This document shows, in pieces, positions 1 to 62,791 of a stretch of 64,000 nucleotides of DNA; positions within the stretch are counted from its first letter, which is position 1, and each line of letters begins with the position of its first letter. Below the pieces are notes generated by a model. It searched no databases. It was not told the origin of the DNA and saw only the letters and a list, made by a program, of their open reading frames with translations. This stretch comes from a virus, in IMG/VR virus record IMGVR_UViG_3300026097_001210, positions 1-64,000 of that record. One strand, 5' to 3'. The position numbers and the translations under genes are program-made.

Positions 1-41
1 CAAAAAGAATTTTAAGTACAAAAATTAACGATTTACTTTAA

Positions 42-50
42 TGCTATAAT
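42..50 (+). promoter_or_regulatory. Extended -10 promoter TGCTATAAT
   Basis: TGn-TATAAT upstream of SD AAGGAG and GTG 81; the same motif recurs before many genes in the window. Confidence 0.7.
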
Positions 51-80
51 ATTAAGGTACCAAACTTATAAGGAGACAAA

Positions 81-410
81 GTGCACACATATACAATTAG
101 CGAAGAAAACACCATCGAGGTTTTTGGTGAAGGAGAGACTATTCCATTCCTTCGTCAGCCACACTACCCTAACGGTGATGCTTTTGATACCCGTGAAGAA
201 GCAGAGACTTGGGCTCAGCTCTTTATTGAAGCTTTGGTAAACGATGAAGCACCCTATGCTCCAATTGGCAAGGGTATGGAAGGTGAACCAAAACCTACTA
301 AAGAAGAAATGCTAGCAATGCTTAAAGAGCGTGCTGAAGAGTTCGGGGACAATGTTCCAGAACAACTAGCACAGCGTATTGCTGACCTTGAATCTGAAAT
401 TTCTGCTTAA
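81..410 (+). CDS. Hypothetical acidic protein, possibly fibre-associated
   Basis: SD AAGGAG, GTG start, biased codon usage; no recognisable catalytic motif. Confidence 0.7.
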   Translation: MHTYTISEENTIEVFGEGETIPFLRQPHYPNGDAFDTREEAETWAQLFIEALVNDEAPYAPIGKGMEGEPKPTKEEMLAMLKERAEEFGDNVPEQLAQRIADLESEISA

Positions 411-418
411 CATTTGAT

Positions 419-463
419 CATCGTTTCTTCTTCTGATACAATGTATTAGGAGGAGAGACGATG
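419..463 (+). promoter_or_regulatory. RBS/start-codon-sequestering hairpin containing an extended -10 promoter (TGATACAAT 434-442)
   Basis: 419-439 pairs with 443-463 (21 contiguous WC/GU pairs), covering AGGAGG and ATG 461. Confidence 0.75.
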
Positions 464-1120
464 AATCATTTTGATGTTCTTATTGCTACCCCTGGGCATA
501 GCCTGGAAGCTCACTATGTGAGAAGCCTTGTAGATACTTTAGCTGAGTGTGATTCTCGGGGGGTATCATACAAGTGGCTTAACTCTTATTCTTCTTTAGT
601 TCATAATGCTAGAGAAACAACTATTAGCGGTGGAGATGGGTTTACTCTTAATCCCCTCGATAAAGGTCCATTAGGAGATAGCGTTACATATAACAAAATC
701 TTTTGGATTGATTCTGACATTTCCTGGACACCAGAAGACTTTTTTAAGCTATATGATTCTGAGCATGAAGTTACTACTGGTGCATATTTACTTGCAGACA
801 ATGTTACTACTTCTGTTCATGCTTGGGGTACACCTGGCGGTATTCCTAAAGAAGAAATCTTAAAGATGAAAGAAGTAACCAAAATTCAAAGTATGGGCTT
901 TGGATTTGTTGCTATGAAAAACGGGGTATTTGAAAGACTAGACCGTCCTTGGTTTGGACATTATACTCAAAAGATGCAAACAGGTCCAGATACCTTTATT
1001 GACACATATCTAGGTGAAGATATATCATGGTGTATTAATGCTTATAAGCATGGTGTGGAAATTTATTTTGACCCCTCGGTTTTGGTGGGGCATATGAAGA
1101 AGGTGAAAATAGAATGGTAG
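461..1120 (+). CDS. GT-A fold glycosyltransferase-like protein
   Basis: N-terminal VLIATP strand, DxD motif FWIDSDI, GFGF and GEDISWC motifs, C-terminal GH. Confidence 0.75.
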   Translation: MNHFDVLIATPGHSLEAHYVRSLVDTLAECDSRGVSYKWLNSYSSLVHNARETTISGGDGFTLNPLDKGPLGDSVTYNKIFWIDSDISWTPEDFFKLYDSEHEVTTGAYLLADNVTTSVHAWGTPGGIPKEEILKMKEVTKIQSMGFGFVAMKNGVFERLDRPWFGHYTQKMQTGPDTFIDTYLGEDISWCINAYKHGVEIYFDPSVLVGHMKKVKIEW

Positions 1121-1935
1121 ATAAACAATATTTTTTTATGGCAGGTTTGCCACGTTCAGGAAGCACATTGCTTGCTTCTCTCTTGAGTCAGAATCCAGAT
1201 ATGTATGTTTCTGCTCAATCTCCCCTGCCCAATATTCTGGGGGCAGCTTATAATCAATATCAAAGCAAAGAAAATCTAGACCACAGTAGATTTGATGATA
1301 TCTATAATGTAGTAGACAATATTATTCCTTTGTTCTATGAAAAGCACCCAGAAAAATACATCATTGATAAAAACTTTTCCTGGCTAGAGCCACACCCATA
1401 TGTGATTCTAGAGCACCATCTTAAGAACGATATTAAAGTTATTTGTCCAGTAAGAAATATTCTTGAAATTCTTGCATCATGGAATAGACTATGTGAAAAT
1501 GACAAGACTAATCAATATGACAATATTATTAGACAGCATGATAAGACTAATCGTAAGATGCCAGATCGTCGAGCAGACTTCTTTATGAATGTCCAAGACG
1601 AAGAGCAGAAGGGTATTCTTAATGGAATTGAAAACATGAAGCGTATTCTATACCCCCAATTCAAAGACCAGATTATGCTCGTTGAATATGATGACTTAAT
1701 TGATAATACCGCAGAAACAATTGACAGCATTTATAATTTCTTAGGTATTGAAAAGTATGAGCACGATTTTTCACATATTACTAATCCTCACGAATATAAC
1801 GATATTTGGGGGGTAAAGAATCATCACACAATTAAGTCAAAGATTAAAAAAGAAGAGTATGACTTTGAAAAACTATTCTCTTTTGACACTATTAAAAGGT
1901 ATTCTGGTCTAGAGTTTTGGAAGAATATTAAATGA
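1114..1935 (+). CDS. PAPS-dependent sulfotransferase
   Basis: 5'-PSB loop GLPRSGSTLL, DK motif, 3'-PB motif VRNILEILAS, VEYDDL...IYNFLG. Confidence 0.85.
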   Translation: MVDKQYFFMAGLPRSGSTLLASLLSQNPDMYVSAQSPLPNILGAAYNQYQSKENLDHSRFDDIYNVVDNIIPLFYEKHPEKYIIDKNFSWLEPHPYVILEHHLKNDIKVICPVRNILEILASWNRLCENDKTNQYDNIIRQHDKTNRKMPDRRADFFMNVQDEEQKGILNGIENMKRILYPQFKDQIMLVEYDDLIDNTAETIDSIYNFLGIEKYEHDFSHITNPHEYNDIWGVKNHHTIKSKIKKEEYDFEKLFSFDTIKRYSGLEFWKNIK

Positions 1936-2687
1936 TTATTGTGATTTCTGGTTTGCCAGGGGCAGGCAAAACAACACTAGCTAAAGAAATAGTGCGTAGA
2001 ACAGATGCTATTCATCTAAATGCCGATGACGTTAGGGCAGACCTAAGTTCTGACCTGGGGTTTTCTATTGATGATCGTAAAGAACAGTCAAGAAGGTTAG
2101 GCGCTATGGCAAGGCTGCTTTCTAATCAAGGTCATCTTGTGATTGTTGATTTTGTAAATCCTATCGAAGAAACTCGTAATGCTTTTGGTAGCTATGATTA
2201 TTTTGTTTGGGTTGACAGAATTAAAGAGGGTAGGTTTGAAAACACCAACAATATTTGGCAAGAGCCAACTAATGTTGATATAAGAATAGAAGAAGGCTTA
2301 ACTGTTGAAGAAGAAACAAAGCTTGTTTTAGATACCTTCGAAATTTATGACTGGACAGAACCAACAACTTTAATGCTTGGTAGATACCAGCCTTGGCACG
2401 AGGGGCACCAGGCTTTAAAAAACGAGGGGCACAAAAGAACAGAACAAGTTTTGATTGGAGTTAGAAACACTCATGGTACTTCTGAAAAAGATCCACTACC
2501 TTATGAAAAAGTGGTGGAATACATACAGCAATCTAATGGCACAAATAACTCACTAATAATGAAACTACCCAACATTACTAATATTATTTATGGTAGGGAC
2601 GTGGGGTATAAAATTGAACACGTTGAGCTACCCCCTGAAATTCAAGAAATATCAGCAACAAATAAACGTAAAGAGATGGGAATATGA
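1932..2687 (+). CDS. cysC: Adenylylsulfate (APS) kinase fused to a C-terminal HxGH nucleotidyltransferase domain (candidate PAPS synthase)
   Basis: P-loop GLPGAGKT, LNADDVR and LGFSIDDRKEQSRR (CysC signatures); C-domain GRYQPWHEGH, YGRD, ISATNKR. Confidence 0.8.
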   Translation: MIIVISGLPGAGKTTLAKEIVRRTDAIHLNADDVRADLSSDLGFSIDDRKEQSRRLGAMARLLSNQGHLVIVDFVNPIEETRNAFGSYDYFVWVDRIKEGRFENTNNIWQEPTNVDIRIEEGLTVEEETKLVLDTFEIYDWTEPTTLMLGRYQPWHEGHQALKNEGHKRTEQVLIGVRNTHGTSEKDPLPYEKVVEYIQQSNGTNNSLIMKLPNITNIIYGRDVGYKIEHVELPPEIQEISATNKRKEMGI

Positions 2688-2893
2688 AAGCAACAAAAGC
2701 TCGTTCAATGGCTAAAGCACTTCTTTACCGTGGACTAGGAACTTTAAGCACTTTTGTCATTGCTTTGATTTTTACGGGGGAAGCAGTAACAGCAACCTGG
2801 ATTGCTTTGATTGAATTTGTTGTCAAAACACTTCTATATTATTTTTATGAACGTTTTTGGAACATGATTTCTTGGGGTAGACAAGAAACCTAA
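2684..2893 (+). CDS. Small two-TM membrane protein, DUF2061-like
   Basis: RSMAKALLYR...KTLLYYFYERFW..ISWG pattern; ATGA overlap with the cysC fusion. Confidence 0.75.
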   Translation: MKATKARSMAKALLYRGLGTLSTFVIALIFTGEAVTATWIALIEFVVKTLLYYFYERFWNMISWGRQET

Positions 2894-2902
2894 TGCTATA
2901 AT
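2894..2902 (+). promoter_or_regulatory. Extended -10 promoter for a leaderless transcript
   Basis: TGCTATAAT, 6 nt, ATG 2909; no SD. Confidence 0.65.
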
Positions 2903-2908
2903 AGTTTT

Positions 2909-3874
2909 ATGTTTAATCCACTACTATTAAGGTTTAGAGCTATTGATCAAACCTTTAAGCCAATGGAGGCTACTGGTGGGAACATATCATATTATGCAGA
3001 TAATGGAATAGTTTATAAGGTTCATACTTTTACTTCTGGTACCTCGAATTTTGTCGTCAATGACCCTGGAAATGGCAACAGCAGAGGCTTGGTAAATTAC
3101 TTGGTTATTGCTGGTGGTGGTGGTTCTGCTGGATCTCAGGATGACGTTACCCTCGCTGGCGGTGGCGGTGGTGGCGGGTATAGAACAAACATGCCAAATG
3201 AAAGATCTGGAAGAGATAGCGACCCAGAGCCAGTGTTAAAACTAAATGCAGGATCTTATACTGTCACCGTTGGCGGCGGTGGTGGTGCTGGATCTAGCAG
3301 ATATCGCTTTCCTGGAGATGGTGGAAATGGTGGCAACTCTCAGTTTTATAATATTATTTCTAGTGGTGGGGGTGGAACTAGATACCAAAAGGGTGGAAAA
3401 AATGGTGGATGCGGAGGAGGAGACTCCAATCGTAGAAATGGTGGAGGCTCTGGCTCAATAAATCAAGGATTTGACGGCGGAACGGGTAGCACTTACGGCA
3501 CGGGACGCGGCGGTGCGGGCGGAGGTGGAGGTGCTGGCTCCGCTGGAGAAAGCGTTAGCTCTTTTAGCAGCTCTGGTGGAGACGGTGGCTATGGAATAGT
3601 TTCCTCAATTAACGGTTCTGCAATAGGCAGGGCAGGCGGCGGTGGCGGCTCTGCAAGAAGTTCTGCTGGTGTAGGCAGAAACGGAGGTGCATCTGGAAGG
3701 ACTGGCAGAAGCTCTGGGGCATCTGGTGCAAACGGATATGGGGGTGGTGCTGGCGGATCATCTTGGTACAGTACCGAAAGAGGAAGCACAGGCGGCGGCC
3801 GAGGAGGATCGGGAATCGTTATCGTAAGATATATATATGGATATGGCGATACGGTGGAAGAAGTTTTGGGGTAG
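2909..3874 (+). CDS. Glycine-rich virion fibre/adhesin-like protein
   Basis: YKVHTFTSG, YLVIAGGGG, many GGGGG runs, terminal GGSGIVIVRY. Confidence 0.7.
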   Translation: MFNPLLLRFRAIDQTFKPMEATGGNISYYADNGIVYKVHTFTSGTSNFVVNDPGNGNSRGLVNYLVIAGGGGSAGSQDDVTLAGGGGGGGYRTNMPNERSGRDSDPEPVLKLNAGSYTVTVGGGGGAGSSRYRFPGDGGNGGNSQFYNIISSGGGGTRYQKGGKNGGCGGGDSNRRNGGGSGSINQGFDGGTGSTYGTGRGGAGGGGGAGSAGESVSSFSSSGGDGGYGIVSSINGSAIGRAGGGGGSARSSAGVGRNGGASGRTGRSSGASGANGYGGGAGGSSWYSTERGSTGGGRGGSGIVIVRYIYGYGDTVEEVLG

Positions 3875-3878
3875 AATT

Positions 3879-4334
3879 GTGAAAGTTACTTTAGATATTG
3901 GTAATGGTTTTTGGAGTTTTGACAAACAAGAGCTAGCAAAAAGATATAGAGATAACGATGACTTAATTTTTGATTTTGTAAAAAATTCTAATGCCTACGT
4001 AGAGTTTAAAAGTTTAAGTTTTGGCTTCTTTTTGAAACTAAACAAAGAAGTTGTTTATCAGGAAAGTTTTCCTAAAGATAGTATTGTTTATTATTCAACA
4101 GATCAAGAATACTTAGAATCCGTAAAGGTTGAAGATATCAAGGCAGACAAAGAGTATGAGCTGAGTGTTTGGGCGGTAAACGATGGAATAGAGTATTCAG
4201 AAATTTTTGTATTTTCAATTCCTAAGCCAAAACAACCTGGTCAAGGATGGGTATGGAACGATGATGGAAATTATTGGGATCCCCCAATTGAATCTGCAGC
4301 CATCGGCGTAGAAATAGACAATCAAAACAACTAG
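3879..4334 (+). CDS. Hypothetical protein, probably fibre-associated
   Basis: GTG 3879 just after the upstream stop (ORF track start 3837 overlaps it); C-terminal PKQPGQGWVWNDDGNYWDPP. Confidence 0.6.
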   Translation: MKVTLDIGNGFWSFDKQELAKRYRDNDDLIFDFVKNSNAYVEFKSLSFGFFLKLNKEVVYQESFPKDSIVYYSTDQEYLESVKVEDIKADKEYELSVWAVNDGIEYSEIFVFSIPKPKQPGQGWVWNDDGNYWDPPIESAAIGVEIDNQNN

Positions 4335-4385
4335 AGCCTATCTACACAAAAACTCCCACTATGTTAAAATATATTAGGAGAATAA

Positions 4386-7300
4386 ATGTCTACAGCCCTT
4401 AATCTTTATGCCACAAAAGTTTTTGCGGAACACCCCGTTTCTTTGTGGGCATTGGATGATACATCCGACTATGTAGCCCTTATAAACGACACTAATCAGA
4501 ATCTTGATAATTGGAGTGTTACAGGGGCATCAGTTGTTGATGCTAGAACAGATTCAGAGTTTCAATCGGATAGGCCACCGCTAGAGCCATTTGAAAATAA
4601 ATATCTTAATGGTGTAACAGAAACTTTGGGTAGCGGTGGAATAGTAACTTTTGAAAGTCCAGGTTATTTTCAGCCATCAGATTTTGATCTGACCCTTGGA
4701 TCTTTTTCAATATCTACCTACTTTTTTACTTATGATAGAACAACTCAAGTTCGAGTGGGGTATTCATATTTTAACGGCTCACAAAGAGTAGAAGTCCCAG
4801 ATGTAACTAGAGCAACCACAATACCGGTTGAAAGACAGTGGGCATCTATTTCTCAAACTTTTGATTTCCCCTCAAACTTTAGTGATCTTAAGATATTTAT
4901 AGAAGTTTCCTTTACTGAGTCTGCATCACCATACAAGTTTTCTATTAATGGAATAAATGTTGGTCAGCTTGCAGAAGAGTTTTTTTTAGAGTCCCCTGGG
5001 GTTTTGCCAGCATCGCTGTCTTCAGAGATTAATTTGCAAGTTTCTGGAGTACCCGCTCAGCCATATGGATTAGAGGGGGCTAGTGGATACTATTTATCTG
5101 ACAACAAAAAAATGTATGCAAAAAATCTGGGGATGCCAATTGTTTATGGTGCATACAATAGCACAGTTCTGACACCATTTGCCAACAATCCCTCTTTAAT
5201 AGTTCCAGGTTTAGGATTTTTAAATGAGTCTGGGCAGTATCAAAAATTCACTTTTGAGTTTTGGGCAAAAATTCATAATGAATCTTTTGTGCTTAGAAAA
5301 ATATTTGGACCTGTTTTTTCAGAAGATGGTTTGTATACGGAAGGTCCATTTCTTATTTTAAAAATAGGAAAAGAGGTTGGCTCTCACTACATTGGTGAAT
5401 GGAATAGGCCAATGCTTTTCAATATTCGATATTCCCCCGACTCCTGCAGTCTTGTCTTAAACGGCGAAGAAGTTATTTCTTTTTCCATTAATCCTAACGA
5501 TACAACCTTTCCAAATAAAGAAGATGGCTCTGGAAACGATCAAGACTGGTTAGGTTTCTACGCCTATGAAGACATCCCCATTATTTCTCTAGACTGTACT
5601 GGTCTATATCCTTATGAGGTTCCAGCTATTGTTTCAAAAAGAAGATTTGTGTATGGCCAGGCTGTAGAAGTGCCAAGCAATTTGCAGGGGTTTAAGAAAA
5701 ATAATTCTTTATCTATAGACAATGCTTTTGCAAAACATGCCAAAACTTATTCCTACCCCCTGCTTGGAAATTGGTCTAATGCTATCGTTGAAAACCTGGT
5801 ACCAAATCCTTCCGACATATCATCTCCAAGCTATTCCCTTCCAGAAATTGCTTTTGACAATAAAACCGTAGAGGAGTGGTATCAGGCTTCTTCAAACAGC
5901 CAAGTGGGGGGATACTCTTTCTTCTCTATGGAGCCAGATGCAGAGTGGACAGAAACTAATGGCCATATGTATTTTAATTCCCTCGAAAATATATTAGAAG
6001 AAACAAAGGCCATCTATGGTGTTTTTAGTCTTAAAAGACTTTATCAAGAAAAGCAAATCTTAATAGAAATGGTTAACAAGGTTAGCGGGGATTCTTTAGA
6101 AATATCTGTAACAGATAATACAGTTAACTACATATTAAAAACAAAACAACCAAACGGTTCTTTTGTAGAGGAAAATATTTTTACGGTAACTGGTCTAGTT
6201 GCTGACGCAATATTTTTAGCGGGTATTCATATTCCAAGAGCAAAGAATTCTTTTGGGTATAAGCTATCTAGGTTTTTTACTAACATTAGCAACATCAGCG
6301 TATTTTTATGCGGTAATTCAGAATTACAGAATACCTTCCGTGGAAGAGTTCACTCTGTAGGCTTTCCGAGTAAAAGGAATCTAAAAAAAATAGAGGATGA
6401 CTTTCTCATTATTGGCATGCCCTCAAACTTTTCAGAAAACTACACCGAGATTCTTATTTATGACGGTGGAGAGTATGACACTATTGAGTGGGAGTATAGC
6501 TATGAAAGTGGAACATATGCCCAAGAGGCTAACGAAGTTTCCTTGATAGGTAACGAGTCTGGCTCTAGTGCTGCTCTTCTAGTGGCGACTCAGGTATATG
6601 ATCATATATCAACATACACTCTGATTCCAAAAGATTATTTTGGCGCATTTACTCTGGATATTGGTGCCGAGTCTTACTGGGAGGATTATTTGCCTCTAAG
6701 TTACTTTGCAAAATATGTTACAGATGGTGCGGGGAATCAGTATAAAGATCTTGACTTTATTCAATTTAATATTGACTACCCTTTCTTTAATAAATATCTC
6801 AATAACTTTTATGACTCAACTGACTCCCCAGTAAAAATGTATGCAAGCTTTGAGTATTTAGTAAATGGCGTCGCCACACAGCTTTCTGCTTACACAAACA
6901 CAAAGCTTTTACCAAAGTCTGGAATTGTTAGACCTGGAACAGAGTGGAAAACAACTAAGTATGAGATAACAGATGATACAGTCATCTACCCACCTGCTGA
7001 AGAAAACTTTGAAAGTCTTGCTCTAAAGATAAGTCTTGAGATTTCCACTATTGGTGTAATTGAAAAACCAATTTCAATTAAGTCCTTAGATTTTGCATCA
7101 AAATCTTTGGGGTATTCTCCAAATAGAATTGGTAACAGGTTTGGAACAGAGGTATATCCTTATAGAAAAGTAGGTCCTTATTTTGATTATAAGAATGTTC
7201 CACCATTTAGTATTTATAAAAACAGTGTTCCATACTTATATCTTTCAGGAAGTTCGGGTATAAGAATGAGAGATGATTATGCAACATCAGATGAAAGAGG

Positions 7301-7982
7301 CTTTACAATGCCAATTAACAGGGGGAGGGGTAGCTTCTTTAAGGTTGGCTCAATGCAAATTTTAGCTAAGTATGAAAGAGATACGCTTCCCACCACCCCA
7401 GTAAAAATATTTGAAATCGACGGGGCAGACAGAAGTATTAACTTTTATCTAGTTGCATTCAAGGGAAACAGTAAAAGAGGGTTTGTCTATGCACTAGATG
7501 GCACAACGGGAAGGGCCATAAGCGGACTGATTTATAGTATGGACGGTAGAAATGTTAAAAGACCAATTATAAGCCCCAATGTTTGGACAGCAATAGGCGT
7601 TAGTTTTGAAGAAGCTATAGACTTTTCTTCTTCTGTTGGTGCTTTAAGAATAACAAACCCAATCTTTGTAGACAATATCTCTTATTATCAAATTACTGAA
7701 CAAGAAGAATCTTCTCGTCTTGCATATAGAAAATGGTATGCTGTACGAGCAGAGCCAGACAATGACTTAGACTGGGATTATTGGGACGAATCAACTTGGC
7801 AAGAGGTTTTATTCCTTACAGAAGCTAGGCCAACAGTTATAGATCCCACAAAAATTTACAAGCAGTACACAGGAACAGACAGGTTTGTCAATCAGTCAAG
7901 CACATCAATTAGGCTAGGCGAATATAAATACTCTACATTCAAAAATGTAAGATGGTCTAGAATAACCTCAAATTCTGCCTAG
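4386..7982 (+). CDS. Large beta-rich virion structural protein with a LamG/ConA-like segment
   Basis: 1198 aa; HPVSLWALDD start, FTFEFW and LVLNGEEV LamG-type motifs; promoter TGTTAAAAT and SD upstream. Confidence 0.6.
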   Translation: MSTALNLYATKVFAEHPVSLWALDDTSDYVALINDTNQNLDNWSVTGASVVDARTDSEFQSDRPPLEPFENKYLNGVTETLGSGGIVTFESPGYFQPSDFDLTLGSFSISTYFFTYDRTTQVRVGYSYFNGSQRVEVPDVTRATTIPVERQWASISQTFDFPSNFSDLKIFIEVSFTESASPYKFSINGINVGQLAEEFFLESPGVLPASLSSEINLQVSGVPAQPYGLEGASGYYLSDNKKMYAKNLGMPIVYGAYNSTVLTPFANNPSLIVPGLGFLNESGQYQKFTFEFWAKIHNESFVLRKIFGPVFSEDGLYTEGPFLILKIGKEVGSHYIGEWNRPMLFNIRYSPDSCSLVLNGEEVISFSINPNDTTFPNKEDGSGNDQDWLGFYAYEDIPIISLDCTGLYPYEVPAIVSKRRFVYGQAVEVPSNLQGFKKNNSLSIDNAFAKHAKTYSYPLLGNWSNAIVENLVPNPSDISSPSYSLPEIAFDNKTVEEWYQASSNSQVGGYSFFSMEPDAEWTETNGHMYFNSLENILEETKAIYGVFSLKRLYQEKQILIEMVNKVSGDSLEISVTDNTVNYILKTKQPNGSFVEENIFTVTGLVADAIFLAGIHIPRAKNSFGYKLSRFFTNISNISVFLCGNSELQNTFRGRVHSVGFPSKRNLKKIEDDFLIIGMPSNFSENYTEILIYDGGEYDTIEWEYSYESGTYAQEANEVSLIGNESGSSAALLVATQVYDHISTYTLIPKDYFGAFTLDIGAESYWEDYLPLSYFAKYVTDGAGNQYKDLDFIQFNIDYPFFNKYLNNFYDSTDSPVKMYASFEYLVNGVATQLSAYTNTKLLPKSGIVRPGTEWKTTKYEITDDTVIYPPAEENFESLALKISLEISTIGVIEKPISIKSLDFASKSLGYSPNRIGNRFGTEVYPYRKVGPYFDYKNVPPFSIYKNSVPYLYLSGSSGIRMRDDYATSDERGFTMPINRGRGSFFKVGSMQILAKYERDTLPTTPVKIFEIDGADRSINFYLVAFKGNSKRGFVYALDGTTGRAISGLIYSMDGRNVKRPIISPNVWTAIGVSFEEAIDFSSSVGALRITNPIFVDNISYYQITEQEESSRLAYRKWYAVRAEPDNDLDWDYWDESTWQEVLFLTEARPTVIDPTKIYKQYTGTDRFVNQSSTSIRLGEYKYSTFKNVRWSRITSNSA

Positions 7983-8010
7983 AGAGTTATAATATGGTAT
8001 ACTGGTTACC

Positions 8011-8379
8011 ATGAATAGCCCAACTTCGGACAAAATCGGCAAGTCTAAAGCCACAATCATTGATAAGGGTTATGACTGGGGCATTTATGTGTGGAAAAAG
8101 TCAAATGGGAAGTGGTTTACTGATGGAAACGGAAATATTTTAAACATCCCTTCCATGAAGGGCGACCTTTCTAAAATTTCAGAACTTAAAAGTGCCGCCG
8201 CATATCACGGAGAGCCAGACGGAGAGCCAGTCTTTTTTGCTGGACTAAGCAGAGTCAGTGATGAAGAGTATGAGGAGCAGGTGGGAAGAATGCAACAGGG
8301 TCTTATTCCTAACCTCAATGACCTTGGTGCGGTGCATGCGGCACAACAAACTTTAAAACAGTATGGTGATGAAGGATAA
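8011..8379 (+). CDS. Hypothetical protein upstream of portal
   Basis: TGGTATACT-N7-ATG; stop overlaps the portal start. Confidence 0.7.
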   Translation: MNSPTSDKIGKSKATIIDKGYDWGIYVWKKSNGKWFTDGNGNILNIPSMKGDLSKISELKSAAAYHGEPDGEPVFFAGLSRVSDEEYEEQVGRMQQGLIPNLNDLGAVHAAQQTLKQYGDEG

Positions 8380-9983
8380 TGGAACAAGAGTGGACAGTCG
8401 GCGCTAGAATCGACGAATTAGAAAAACAAGAAAATAGCTTTAAGAATCAGGATCCATTCAACAAAAGCTGGGAAGACTTAAAGGCATACAATGGTTTGGC
8501 TACAAACTTTAAAAGAAGATCTACAAGAATTGCAAAAACCTTGGATATGCCACCAAGCGAGCAATACCTATCCAATGCTCGTGCCAGTCAGGTAGGAACA
8601 GACGGGGCAGGCTCTAAAGAAATTAATCCTGGCGACGTTTTTCGTAATGGCTACGGAATGTTTGATGTTATCACACCCCCATGGAACCTATACGAGCTTG
8701 CAAACTACTATGATACATCATTCGCTAATCACGCAGCTATTGATGCAAAGGTAGAGAATATCGTTGGACTTGGCTATGATTTCGCGGTATCAGAAAGAAC
8801 TATGCTTAGACTTGAAACTAATCAGGATGAGCTAGCCACTAAGCGTGCTCGCAACAGAATTGAAAGAGCAAGAATTGAGCTAAGGGACTGGATTGAAAAT
8901 CTTAATCAAGATGATTCTTTCACGAACACACTAATGAAGTTTTATACTGACGTTCAGTCAACTGGTAATGGATATTTAGAAATTGGTAGAACTACAAAGG
9001 GAGAGATTGGCTACATTGGACACATTCCCTCTACCACAATGCGAGTGCGAAGATTGCGCGATGGGTATGTTCAAATTATTGGACAGAAAGTTGTTTACTT
9101 CCGTAATTTCGGGGCAAATAATCAAAACCCCATGACCACCGACCCACGTCCAAATGAAATTATTCACTACAAAGAGTATTCTCCATTAAACACTTTTTAT
9201 GGTATTCCAGACATCATGTCTGCCATTTCATCACTTCATGGAGATCAGCTTGCCTCTCAGTACAACATTGACTACTTTGGAAATAAGGCTGTTCCAAGAT
9301 ATGTGGTTACCTTAAAGGGAGCAAAACTTTCTCCAGATGCTGAAGACAAGATGTTTAGATTTTTGCAAACAAGCCTAAAGGGTCAGTCCCATAGAACACT
9401 ATACATTCCACTACCTGGAGATACTGACAATAACAAAGTAGAGTTTAACATGGAGCCAATTGAAAATGGTGTTCAAGAGGCATCCTTTAATGAATACAGG
9501 GTCCGCAATAGAGATGATATTTTGGTTGCTCATCAGGTCCCTCTTTCAAAAATTGGTGGAGCAGATGCATCATCAATTGCATCAGCACTTGCACAAGACA
9601 GAACATTTAAAGAGCAGGTAGCTAGACCAGCACAAAAGAATTTAGAAAAAATTATAAACAAAGTCGTTAAAGAAAAAACAGACATTCTAGAGTTTAAGTT
9701 TAACGAACTAACATTGACAGACGAAATCGCTCAGTCACAAATTATTGAGCGCTATGTGAAGACACAGGTCATGACTCCAAACGAAGCAAGGCAAGAGCTT
9801 GGCCTCCCCCAAAGGCCAGATGGCGACGATCCATTCCTAATGTCCCCCAGACAAATGACTGATGCTAGAGCAAATTTGGCAGGGAATAGGGAAAGAGATT
9901 CTCAAAGATCAAATGAACAATCTGACAATACAGAAACACTACAAGGAAGAAACGCTCAGGGCGAAGGCCCAGCATCAGAGTAG
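8379..9983 (+). CDS. Portal protein (HK97-type)
   Basis: TGNGYLE, EIIHYK..SPLNTFYGIP, YFGNKAVP, HQVP, MTPNEARQELGL; position before protease and capsid. Confidence 0.92.
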   Translation: MEQEWTVGARIDELEKQENSFKNQDPFNKSWEDLKAYNGLATNFKRRSTRIAKTLDMPPSEQYLSNARASQVGTDGAGSKEINPGDVFRNGYGMFDVITPPWNLYELANYYDTSFANHAAIDAKVENIVGLGYDFAVSERTMLRLETNQDELATKRARNRIERARIELRDWIENLNQDDSFTNTLMKFYTDVQSTGNGYLEIGRTTKGEIGYIGHIPSTTMRVRRLRDGYVQIIGQKVVYFRNFGANNQNPMTTDPRPNEIIHYKEYSPLNTFYGIPDIMSAISSLHGDQLASQYNIDYFGNKAVPRYVVTLKGAKLSPDAEDKMFRFLQTSLKGQSHRTLYIPLPGDTDNNKVEFNMEPIENGVQEASFNEYRVRNRDDILVAHQVPLSKIGGADASSIASALAQDRTFKEQVARPAQKNLEKIINKVVKEKTDILEFKFNELTLTDEIAQSQIIERYVKTQVMTPNEARQELGLPQRPDGDDPFLMSPRQMTDARANLAGNRERDSQRSNEQSDNTETLQGRNAQGEGPASE

Positions 9984-62039: not shown

Positions 62040-62270
62040 ATGTATATTAAGTCATTAGAAGAGATGGAAAAAATTGTTGATTCTTTTAGGTTTTTGTATT
62101 GGGATGGTTGGGACGTAATTCAAACATTCCCCTCGGACAAAGCAAGGACATCAAAGCGCGGTATTTTTAAAAATGGCCGCTGGTATCTTCACAATAGATA
62201 TCGACCTGGCGCAAAGGGATGGAATATCCCAGACAAACTAATTAATAAGAAAGGCAAAAGTGAATCGTAA
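62040..62270 (+). CDS. Hypothetical protein
   Basis: LYWDGWDV, G.F.NG.W. Confidence 0.6.
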   Translation: MYIKSLEEMEKIVDSFRFLYWDGWDVIQTFPSDKARTSKRGIFKNGRWYLHNRYRPGAKGWNIPDKLINKKGKSES

Positions 62271-62550
62271 TGAATGGAAAGACGATGCTGCTTGCCTAGG
62301 CTATGACACAAATCTCTTTTTTGATAAGTATGAGGAAAGCGAAGAGTTTCGTCCAGGAATAGATAATCTTTGTGCTGGTTGCCCAGTGGCCAGACAATGT
62401 TTTGCTGTTGGGGTTTCTCAAAAAGAATGGGGAGTCTGGGGCGGTATCTATTTAGAAAATGGAAAAATCTCTAGAGAGTTTAATAGACATAGGTCTAAGC
62501 AAGACTGGGCAGATACATGGCAATATTTAACAATAGATCAAAGGAAATAG
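62260..62550 (+). CDS. whiB: WhiB-family Fe-S transcription factor
   Basis: W...AAC, LFF, C..CPV..QC, EWGVWGG. Confidence 0.9.
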   Translation: MNRNEWKDDAACLGYDTNLFFDKYEESEEFRPGIDNLCAGCPVARQCFAVGVSQKEWGVWGGIYLENGKISREFNRHRSKQDWADTWQYLTIDQRK

Positions 62551-62551
62551 T

Positions 62552-62791
62552 GTGTATACAGAAGAAATGGCTAAAGCTTTTAGATCTTTAGATCATTTTG
62601 CCCCCAAGGGCTTCGCATTAAAAATAGCAGATGAAGAACACTTCATTTCAGTTATTGCAGATGAAAAACAATTCAGTCAGCTAGTTGACTTTGATAAGCG
62701 TCGTGCTGTAGAATATATGGTACGTGTAAAAAAAGCACTAGAAGAAAATGGAGCAATCGTTCTATTGGTGAGAGAGGGAGGCCAAGAATAA
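62552..62791 (+). CDS. Hypothetical protein
   Basis: SD AAGGA and GTG start; closely packed. Confidence 0.6.
   Translation: MYTEEMAKAFRSLDHFAPKGFALKIADEEHFISVIADEKQFSQLVDFDKRRAVEYMVRVKKALEENGAIVLLVREGGQE

Follow-up and report, generated by a model that had tools for sequence, protein, structure and literature searches.

The viral DNA analyzed here, hereafter the window, comprises the first 64 kb (positions 1 to 64,000) of the 77-kb linear IMG/VR record IMGVR_UViG_3300026097_001210, which is ~68% complete. It has a GC content of ~40% and carries nearly all of its genes on the + strand. Close to its start lies a cassette of four + strand open reading frames (ORFs) at 461-1120, 1114-1935, 1932-2687 and 2684-2893, whose predicted products are a GT-A-fold glycosyltransferase (GT), a sulfotransferase dependent on 3'-phosphoadenosine 5'-phosphosulfate (PAPS), a fusion of an adenosine 5'-phosphosulfate (APS) kinase with a nucleotidyltransferase (NTase) domain, and a small DUF2061 membrane protein. 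AGGAGG and ATG mark the 5' end of the GT gene (449-463), successive ORFs overlap by 7, 4 and 4 nt (ATGGTAG, ATGA and ATGA at the start and stop codons), and the four genes are translationally coupled. After a gap of 15 nt comes a Gly-rich ORF of 321 aa (2909-3874), followed by a 165-aa ORF, a 1198-aa protein, a 122-aa protein and the portal (8379-9983, a Pfam match). A preliminary description of this DNA had recognized the same four overlapping genes directly upstream of a Gly-rich gene, which it took for a fiber gene, and the virion module, and both the arrangement and the four gene identities hold.

The GT (461-1120) belongs to phrog_1574 (2e-48) and also matches a glycosyltransferase phrog weakly. 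It hits no Pfam family at E <= 0.01 and could be assigned to no curated GT or CAZy family; its homologs likewise carry no precomputed Pfam domain. A DxD motif (D84-S85-D86) is invariant among 20 homologs, and the profile built from these found A197 of Sulfolobus turreted icosahedral virus (STIV) as its best, and sole near-significant, match among solved structures. When the AlphaFold model of the protein (pLDDT 79, pTM 0.81) was searched with Foldseek, all top matches were GT-A glycosyltransferases at probability 1.0, including STIV A197, ColGalT1, LH3, Mnn9, Mimivirus R699, GlfT2 and ppGalNAc-T. The structural neighbors thus include protein and collagen glycosyltransferases, and the model places the enzyme in the GT-A fold, with a DxD motif.

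The product of the second gene (1114-1935; phrog_27463) is predicted to be a PAPS-dependent sulfotransferase by its matches to Sulfotransfer_3 (PF13469; 1.8e-13, 51.7 bits against a cut-off of 27) and Sulfotransfer_1 (PF00685; 3.6e-13, 49.9 bits against a cut-off of 22). The P-R-S-G-x-T motif of the 5'-phosphosulfate-binding (5'-PSB) region (P13, R14, G16, T18) is invariant in 12 diverse homologs down to 29% identity, as is G11 in the same region, and the 3'-phosphate-binding (3'-PB) R114-x7-S122 and an EYDDL strand are kept across the same set. Its best sequence matches among solved proteins are tyrosylprotein sulfotransferases (TPSTs), weakly (E 3e-3) and over the N-terminal ~70 residues.

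Residues 1-135 of the 251-aa fusion protein (1932-2336) match APS_kinase (PF01583) at 2.2e-18, with 67.2 bits against a cut-off of 21.1; the match covers residues 2-84 and spans positions 4-91 of the 152 in the profile. The top 24 sequence matches of this domain among solved proteins are all APS kinases, and its E-value to APS kinases is 1e-14 compared with >= 5e-4 for other kinases, some ten orders worse. Structural comparison gave VIA-align Z-scores of 16.8, 16.4 and 15.2 to APS kinases, 14.9 to gluconate kinase and at most 13.7 to other kinases, with 10.0 for the NadR kinase domain. The top 40 Foldseek matches are likewise APS kinases, and the fold comparison of the whole model bears only on residues 1-141. 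Across 18 homologs the GLPGxGKT P-loop, NAD(D/E)VR and DLGFSxxDRxExxRR are invariant, as are D32, R35, F44, R49, R54, R55 and F102, and position 52 is Q or N; HMMER aligns F102 with the FTG Phe of Mycobacterium tuberculosis CysC. We take R35, F44, R49, Q/N52 and F102 to correspond to the APS-contacting residues of known APS-kinase structures. On the evidence of profile, fold and motifs, the domain is a predicted APS kinase whose lid is nearly deleted.

The remaining 114 residues of the fusion (residues 138-251; 2343-2687) form a miniature nucleotidyltransferase (mini-NTase) of the HxGH/ISxTxxR type and are a candidate for an APS-forming, ATP sulfurylase-like enzyme. GRYQPWHEGH, YGRDVGY and ISAT-x-K/R-R are invariant here, with H156-E-G-H159, Y-G-R-D-V-G-Y (220-226) and I-S-A-T (240-243) as the invariant positions. 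The HxGH and ISAT motifs are common to the whole HxGH superfamily, and the likeness of GRD to Sat was judged by eye. Pfam adds a weak CTP_transf_like match (residues 148-211) and finds no match to the Sat-type ATP sulfurylase (PF01747) in the fusion protein. A profile search of 1.84 billion representative proteins recovered 1502 relatives of the mini-NTase, stand-alone forms of ~120 aa among them, and a search of the ESM Atlas returned only viral 'cytidyltransferase' clusters. Further architectures were noted in P0132, P0243, P0135, P0270, P0174 and P0222. In P0132 and P0243 the order is reversed, with the mini-NTase placed N-terminal to a complete, canonical APS kinase (APS_kinase 5.7e-63 across the entire profile in P0132, 7e-60 in P0243); the P0132 cluster comprises 7 proteins, drawn from JGI, ENA, Tara and NCBI and encoded on contigs of up to 36 kb. 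P0135 carries an N-terminal DUF4118 membrane domain. It is mainly because the mini-NTase is fused to APS kinases in both orders that we place it in the APS-kinase pathway, where its simplest role would be the synthesis of APS. As a side observation, one relative is fused to a DHHA1 domain, a family that includes pAp phosphatases. On single short contigs, the mini-NTase is joined to fragments of chorismate synthase or dehydroquinate synthase, possibly as artifacts.

The last gene of the cassette (2684-2893) encodes a DUF2061 protein (PF09834; 1.4e-18, 67.5 bits against a cut-off of 23.1) with a conserved YYxHERxW motif and a hydropathy plateau at residues ~16-54 that we read by eye as two hydrophobic segments. 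In viral fusion loci DUF2061 is the regular companion, present in 70 of 82 and directly downstream of the fusion in 64. The family is also found in 65 of 301 sampled Pseudomonadota genomes, where its neighbors in 24 loci are heterogeneous (LysR, MerR, ferritin and oxidoreductase genes). An association of DUF2061 with cys operons was not borne out in these 24 loci. The coupling of DUF2061 to the fusion is specific to phages. The DUF2061 literature gives no function, and a search for longer, fused forms found none, which is weak evidence. Some loci carry tandem DUF2061 paralogs 3' of the fusion (L022 7768-8255, L040 6667-7082 and others; L numbers denote loci), with extra copies further upstream in some. 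The tandem copies hint at a hetero-oligomeric membrane assembly.

To place the cassette in a wider context, we drew on a scan of IMG/VR that yielded at least 400 fusion loci, plus at least 288 more through the reverse-fusion query, and examined 82 fusion loci as well as a further 80 that are more divergent. The complete set of four genes is present on six contigs (the record itself, L004, L005, L017/L150, L068 and L124) in two gene orders, and the cassette genes are syntenic in L004, L005 and L006 at 53-90% amino-acid identity; given this synteny and recurrence, the arrangement is not a matter of chance. Of the 82 loci, 6 have the GT family and 25 a sulfotransferase, a number that an iterated profile raises to 33; the divergent set has a sulfotransferase in 40 of 80 loci and DUF2061 in 11. 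Over the 162 loci, a sulfotransferase lies within 7 kb of the fusion in 30-50%, usually one or two genes upstream, and these sulfotransferases represent two unrelated families. The sulfotransferase family of the window was itself found at no fewer than 582 IMG/VR loci. Among the genes up to four positions from the fusion, DUF2061 is the most frequent; next come an Asp/Arg beta-hydroxylase-like cupin (29 loci), the window's own sulfotransferase family (27 loci, and 9 more in which it is longer) and, in 26 loci, a Sulfotransfer_2-like family. From these patterns we read the cassette as a mobile donor pair, the kinase-NTase with DUF2061, joined to a GT-sulfotransferase pair. The donor pair has moved, because the genes that flank it in L087 correspond to window genes at 62260-62550 and 62552-62791, which adjoin here without an insertion. 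In L087 (7695-9040) the pair stands immediately downstream of a whiB homolog, and in L091 (5672-5956, 2485-3495) and L097 it is found inside the same conserved block of small genes.

A second phage operon was seen in at least 11 loci (L010, L013, L015, L029, L031, L037, L040, L041, L051, L054 and L066, near position 7001). It consists of a 279-aa protein of unknown function (c13), a Sulfotransfer_2-like protein, the Asp/Arg beta-hydroxylase-like cupin, the kinase-NTase, one or two DUF2061 genes and a tryptophan halogenase, an order that suggests hydroxylation, sulfation and halogenation of one substrate. Cultured phages carry homologs as well: of the fusion in Xylella phages Sano and Salvo, in Bhz60, DLP6 and Suzuki and in Clavibacter phage 33, and of the sulfotransferase in the cyanophages S-SKS1, S-SRM01 and S-SCSM1; Stenotrophomonas phages are also among the carriers. 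The DNA of the cassette itself had no match when searched against cultured phages. In Sano (L002 4957-6726) the fusion is gp35 and is preceded by the NADAR protein gp34; two genes upstream of the fusion, the 195-aa gp33 combines a PSB-like loop (LPRSRS) with an R-x7-S motif and matches Sulfotransfer_4 weakly. Sano may serve as a tractable model for the pathway.

The Gly-rich protein (2909-3874, + strand) matches Gly_rich_2 (Pfam, 1.2e-16), contains up to 42 Gly per 100-residue window and is our candidate substrate for the GT and the sulfotransferase. Orthologs occupy the same position in L004 and L006, and a phmmer search, hampered by composition filters, found orthologs in L004, L006/L126, L134 and L245 only. 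The case for a link between sulfation and such proteins comes from a comparison of loci. Counting as Gly-rich or collagen-like any ORF that either reaches 28 Gly per 100 residues or contains collagen-like repeats, such ORFs were present in 46 of 145 loci with a sulfotransferase and in 5 of 97 without one (Fisher p 2.7e-7, uncorrected for relatedness and thus overstating independence, since the loci are related to one another). Forty-one of the 46 lie within 3 kb of the sulfotransferase. Around the sulfotransferase family, collagen-repeat proteins account for 38 ORFs in 29 loci, with 12 of them directly preceding the sulfotransferase; the other neighbors include Kelch-repeat proteins (24 loci), the large terminase (TerL), GT1+FkbM enzymes, and 2-oxoglutarate (2OG) oxygenases of the prolyl 4-hydroxylase type. 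In L130, L134, L137, L140 and L141, very long collagen-repeat proteins (760-1490 aa) are encoded directly upstream of the sulfotransferase gene, from which 14-24 nt separate them. Downstream, the large terminase follows as the next gene in 12 loci.

The host is probably an aquatic actinobacterium, since the genome carries a whiB gene (62275-62448) and its portal resembles that of the Streptomyces BE-cluster phages, to which it is 49% identical; the relatives come from lake and marine samples. To our knowledge, SAR11 bacteria lack the downstream part of the sulfate-assimilation pathway. Nanopelagicales have been reported to be without complete sulfate assimilation (PMC12817590). If the host resembles the latter and has no sulfate activation, a phage dependent on PAPS would have to produce its own.

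Taken together, we propose, as the reading with the best support, that the cassette belongs to a phage sulfation pathway with its own supply of PAPS that acts on Gly-rich or collagen-like phage proteins, and we put the chances of this proposal at about even, as it rests on guilt by association and on a candidate enzymatic activity. In the proposed scheme, the NTase domain would adenylylate sulfate (ATP + sulfate -> APS) and the kinase domain would phosphorylate the 3'-OH of APS to give PAPS. DUF2061, the constant phage partner of the fusion, might anchor the enzyme to the membrane or admit the anion, both of which are guesses. The GT-A enzyme could then add a sugar and the sulfotransferase a sulfate, presumably in that order. 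The likeliest substrates would be the Gly-rich or collagen-like proteins encoded next door, here the Gly_rich_2 protein, and the product would be a glycosylated, sulfated and strongly anionic protein, probably located on or around the virion. PAPS is favored as the end product of the fusion by the attached NTase, the DUF2061 partner, the neighboring sulfotransferases and the lack of cysH. A bolder version can also be formulated, in which the 114-aa HxGH domain represents a novel, minimal ATP sulfurylase and the 251-aa protein the smallest known PAPS synthase; together with DUF2061 it would give phages of sulfate-non-assimilating plankton (acI, SAR11) a self-sufficient sulfate activation that feeds the sulfation of Gly-rich and collagen-like phage proteins, the viral 'cysC' would be a virion- or protein-modification gene, and the particles would carry sulfate esters. 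This fuller version we regard as tentative, and somewhat on the improbable side. A search of the literature on phage or virion sulfation found nothing relevant, and sulfate esters on phage particles have not been described.

Several observations weigh against this proposal. At the level of the enzymes, the kinase domain misses the TIGR00455 equivalog (64.6 bits, cut-off 138.7), and most of its lid is missing, the domain measuring ~135 aa compared with ~175 and only ~7 residues leading from the FVWVD strand to RFE-x-T. The nearest solved relatives of the mini-NTase profile are NadM and archaeal nicotinamide mononucleotide adenylyltransferase (NMNAT; 2qjt at 2e-5, 1f9a at 2e-3), and no ATP sulfurylase appears among solved structures at E <= 10. 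The 'self-contained' donor supply of the preliminary description thus depends on the candidate ATP-sulfurylase activity of a 114-aa, NMNAT-like domain. No sulfur link was seen among the DUF2061 neighbors in the 24 proteobacterial loci. At least half of the fusion loci show no flanking sulfotransferase, and of 80 loci examined for the sulfotransferase family only 10 contain the fusion and 17 (tblastn) to 30 (HMM) the GT family. A search for Sulfotransfer_2 and Sulfotransfer_3 in five complete relatives gave one clear case, one weak case and none recognizable in the other three. Regarding the substrate, the close relative L005 has a single-stranded DNA-binding protein gene in place of the Gly-rich gene, and tblastn found no homolog of the Gly-rich protein in cultured phages, so that its place on the virion is putative. 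Presence of the GT shows no association with Gly-rich ORFs among sulfotransferase loci (p 0.48). Finally, the host assignment is indirect. The likely source of the DNA is a sequencing run labelled soil, and small shares occur in lake and marine runs; the search of sequencing runs listed no RNA run. The interpretation of the preliminary description is thus supported in part: the gene identities hold, the genes are coupled, sulfotransferases are enriched beside the fusion and Gly-rich or collagen-like ORFs at sulfotransferase loci, and the four genes do occur together on six contigs. Its idea of a single module does not stand, because with the GT in so few fusion loci (6/82) and the kinase in so few sulfotransferase loci (10/80) the four genes are not one conserved unit.

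The same chemistry might instead be directed at the host envelope (a lipid-linked glycan, a cell-wall polysaccharide or the capsule), where it could block superinfection or help release. Pelagibacteraceae (SAR11) single-cell genomes encode a 37-40% identical fusion (L095 526-14756 and L094 668-16321, on contigs of 170 and 198 kb) inside a surface-polysaccharide cluster with Wzy_C, GT4, Polysacc_synt_2, GT1, a CMP-sugar synthase, an epimerase and an aminotransferase. No DUF2061 gene adjoins these copies, and no sulfotransferase was detected beside them by HMM. An envelope target would also fit the cell-wall enzymes GlfT2 and Mnn9 among the GT-A structural neighbors, the membrane protein within the module, and the GT1+FkbM and GT2 genes near some sulfotransferase or fusion loci. 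Nevertheless, we consider it unlikely: the sulfotransferases preferentially adjoin Gly-rich or collagen-like ORFs, Kelch proteins and TerL rather than glycan-export genes, the module has no flippase, polymerase or lipid-carrier enzyme, and membrane segments are absent from both the GT and the sulfotransferase. Distinctly less probable is a small-molecule or peptide metabolite, produced in the course of infection, as the target of the sulfotransferases, hydroxylases and halogenases, with the Gly-rich neighbor a coincidence. The recurrent operon with hydroxylase and halogenase speaks for it, and metabolite synthesis has been proposed for cyanophage dioxygenase/halogenase arrays (PMC2938197). Against this, the cassette of the window has a GT rather than a hydroxylase or halogenase, no nonribosomal peptide synthetase, polyketide synthase or precursor-peptide gene was seen, and the association with Gly-rich and collagen-like proteins holds across lineages. 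Modification of phage DNA by the GT and sulfotransferase, to give a glycosylated or sulfated base, would be in line with the Mom, MT-A70 and C5-methylase genes that single locus clusters carry near the fusion. We give it hardly any credence: the genomic association points to Gly-rich proteins, the cassette has no linked hydroxymethyl-pyrimidine pathway, and the GT is a GT-A enzyme whose neighbors are protein and glycan transferases. The known phage DNA glucosyltransferases are of a different kind.

Two further alternatives concern the fusion protein itself. With an NMNAT-like C-terminal domain, a stand-alone homolog that JGI annotates as NMNAT and a NADAR gene preceding the fusion in Sano, the protein could be a NadR-like enzyme of NAD+ salvage or reconstitution (kinase plus NMN adenylyltransferase) that counters an NAD-depleting defense and has nothing to do with sulfation. 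The kinase domain contradicts this, being far closer to APS kinases than to other kinases in sequence (1e-14 compared with >= 5e-4) and in fold (Z 16.8 compared with 10.0 for the NadR kinase domain), and the mini-NTase also occurs fused to canonical full-length APS kinases. The alignments to NMNAT cover profile positions 10-64 only (~55 residues, the ATP-binding first half), and at 114 aa the domain is ~55 residues shorter than an NMNAT of ~170 aa, which leads us to conclude that the NMN-binding half is missing. Together with the sulfotransferase-like PSB and R-x7-S motifs of Sano gp33, this makes NAD+ salvage highly improbable. Only slightly more credible, and still very improbable in our view, is that the fusion is an ordinary cysC auxiliary metabolic gene (AMG) that boosts host sulfate reduction to cysteine, with the GT and sulfotransferase as unrelated neighbors. 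Viral cysC has been published as an AMG of assimilatory sulfate reduction (Kieft et al. preprint, 10.1101/2021.01.05.425418; Chen et al. 2024, PMC10914622), and the many fusion loci that have no sulfotransferase nearby could be read in its favor. However, the family that covers cysH and cysD (PAPS_reduct) has no match in the 77-kb record, in agreement with the preliminary description, which had found no cysH, and searches of five relatives with 92-100% completeness recovered neither Sat nor PAPS_reduct. These absences and the position of the SAR11 fusion in a surface-glycan cluster argue against an assimilatory role; Sat was not found in the fusion-bearing SAR11 single-cell genomes either. Moreover, in every case the kinase is joined to an NTase, and it is paired with a membrane protein, neither of which assimilation requires; sulfotransferases are enriched beside the fusion, the four genes are translationally coupled, and the likely host groups lack the downstream pathway (for Nanopelagicales, PMC12817590).

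Two other proteins of the region deserve mention. An acidic 109-aa protein of unassigned function (81-410, + strand), which matched neither a Pfam nor a PHROG family, has homologs beside the GT and sulfotransferase genes in L005, L017, L124, L125 and L150; its frequent company with these genes suggests that it belongs to the module. The 1198-aa protein (4386-7982) is syntenic between cassette and portal in L004, L005, L006 and L125 at 28-52% identity and has no match in Pfam, PHROG, PDB or, by tblastn, in cultured phages; a faint similarity (E 0.003) was seen to a 578-aa protein upstream of the portal of Streptomyces phage Yaboi. In L005, a 101.5-kb relative, four consecutive beta-propeller-like proteins (423-4913; weak EPTP/DUF6242 matches) precede the cassette, a region that the contig of the window begins too late to show.

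Metagenomic surveys count viral cysC as a sign that phages steer sulfur assimilation, and these readings would need revising if the gene feeds sulfotransferases. If our proposal is correct, an ATP sulfurylase of 114 aa would be a new solution to sulfate activation, and sulfated or glycosylated phage proteins would constitute a new virion surface chemistry that could affect adsorption, aggregation, grazing and stability in water. The homologs in cultured phages make the idea of sulfation testable.

Each part of the proposed pathway has known counterparts. The GT shares its fold (Foldseek E 1e-7 to 7e-6) and DxD motif with STIV A197, the collagen enzymes ColGalT1 and LH3, and Mimivirus R699, although identities are only 10-15% and TM-scores ~0.5. 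The sulfotransferase has the 5'-PSB region and PAPS motifs in common with TPST1/2 of the Sulfotransfer_3 family, in a match too weak to decide between a protein and a sugar acceptor. Freeman et al. reportedly described virion glycosylation in mycobacteriophages in 2023; we know of no sulfation in that system. There too an actinophage GT gene lies next to structural genes and suggests glycosylated virion proteins, but the candidate target here is a Gly-rich accessory protein and not a demonstrated capsid or tail-tube protein. Mycobacteriophage virion glycosylation is echoed in PMC11256854. PAPS synthases (metazoan PAPSS1/2, bacterial Sat-CysC and CysN-CysC) likewise fuse an APS kinase to an APS-making enzyme, in our case a candidate one, and the PAPSS order of N-terminal kinase and C-terminal adenylyltransferase is that of the phage fusion. 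At 251 aa compared with ~620 aa, the phage protein has no PUA-like domain, no Sat-family signal and a lid that is cut down, and human PAPSS1 aligns with the whole fusion model over 240 residues at a root-mean-square deviation of 14.9 A, with the domains placed differently.

The viral 'cysC' AMGs of aquatic phages, with their P-loop and DGD-type motifs, probably belong to the same gene family and are transcribed in lakes (10.1101/2021.01.05.425418; PMC10914622); neither paper mentions sulfotransferases. The closest precedent is the work of Iyer, Abhiman, de Souza and Aravind, who in 2010 predicted bacterial operons that combine a beta-hydroxylase, a sulfotransferase and a PAPS synthetase with collagen-like, Gly-rich or tail-collar proteins, and proposed that these proteins are hydroxylated and then sulfated (PMC2938197). 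Those systems, like the window at 1114-3874 with its candidate PAPS synthase, place a sulfotransferase and an enzyme of PAPS synthesis beside a putative substrate of the Gly-rich or collagen-like type. They include a 2OG-Fe(II) beta-hydroxylase, whereas positions 1-9983 of the window have none and carry a GT-A enzyme in its place; the second phage operon, with its order of hydroxylase, sulfotransferase and fusion, fits them closely. The window further differs in being that of a phage, in placing the genes beside those of the virion, and in its short fusion with DUF2061. Both are computational predictions, and with analogous bacterial operons already predicted by Iyer et al., we regard the phage cassette as a variation on their scheme.

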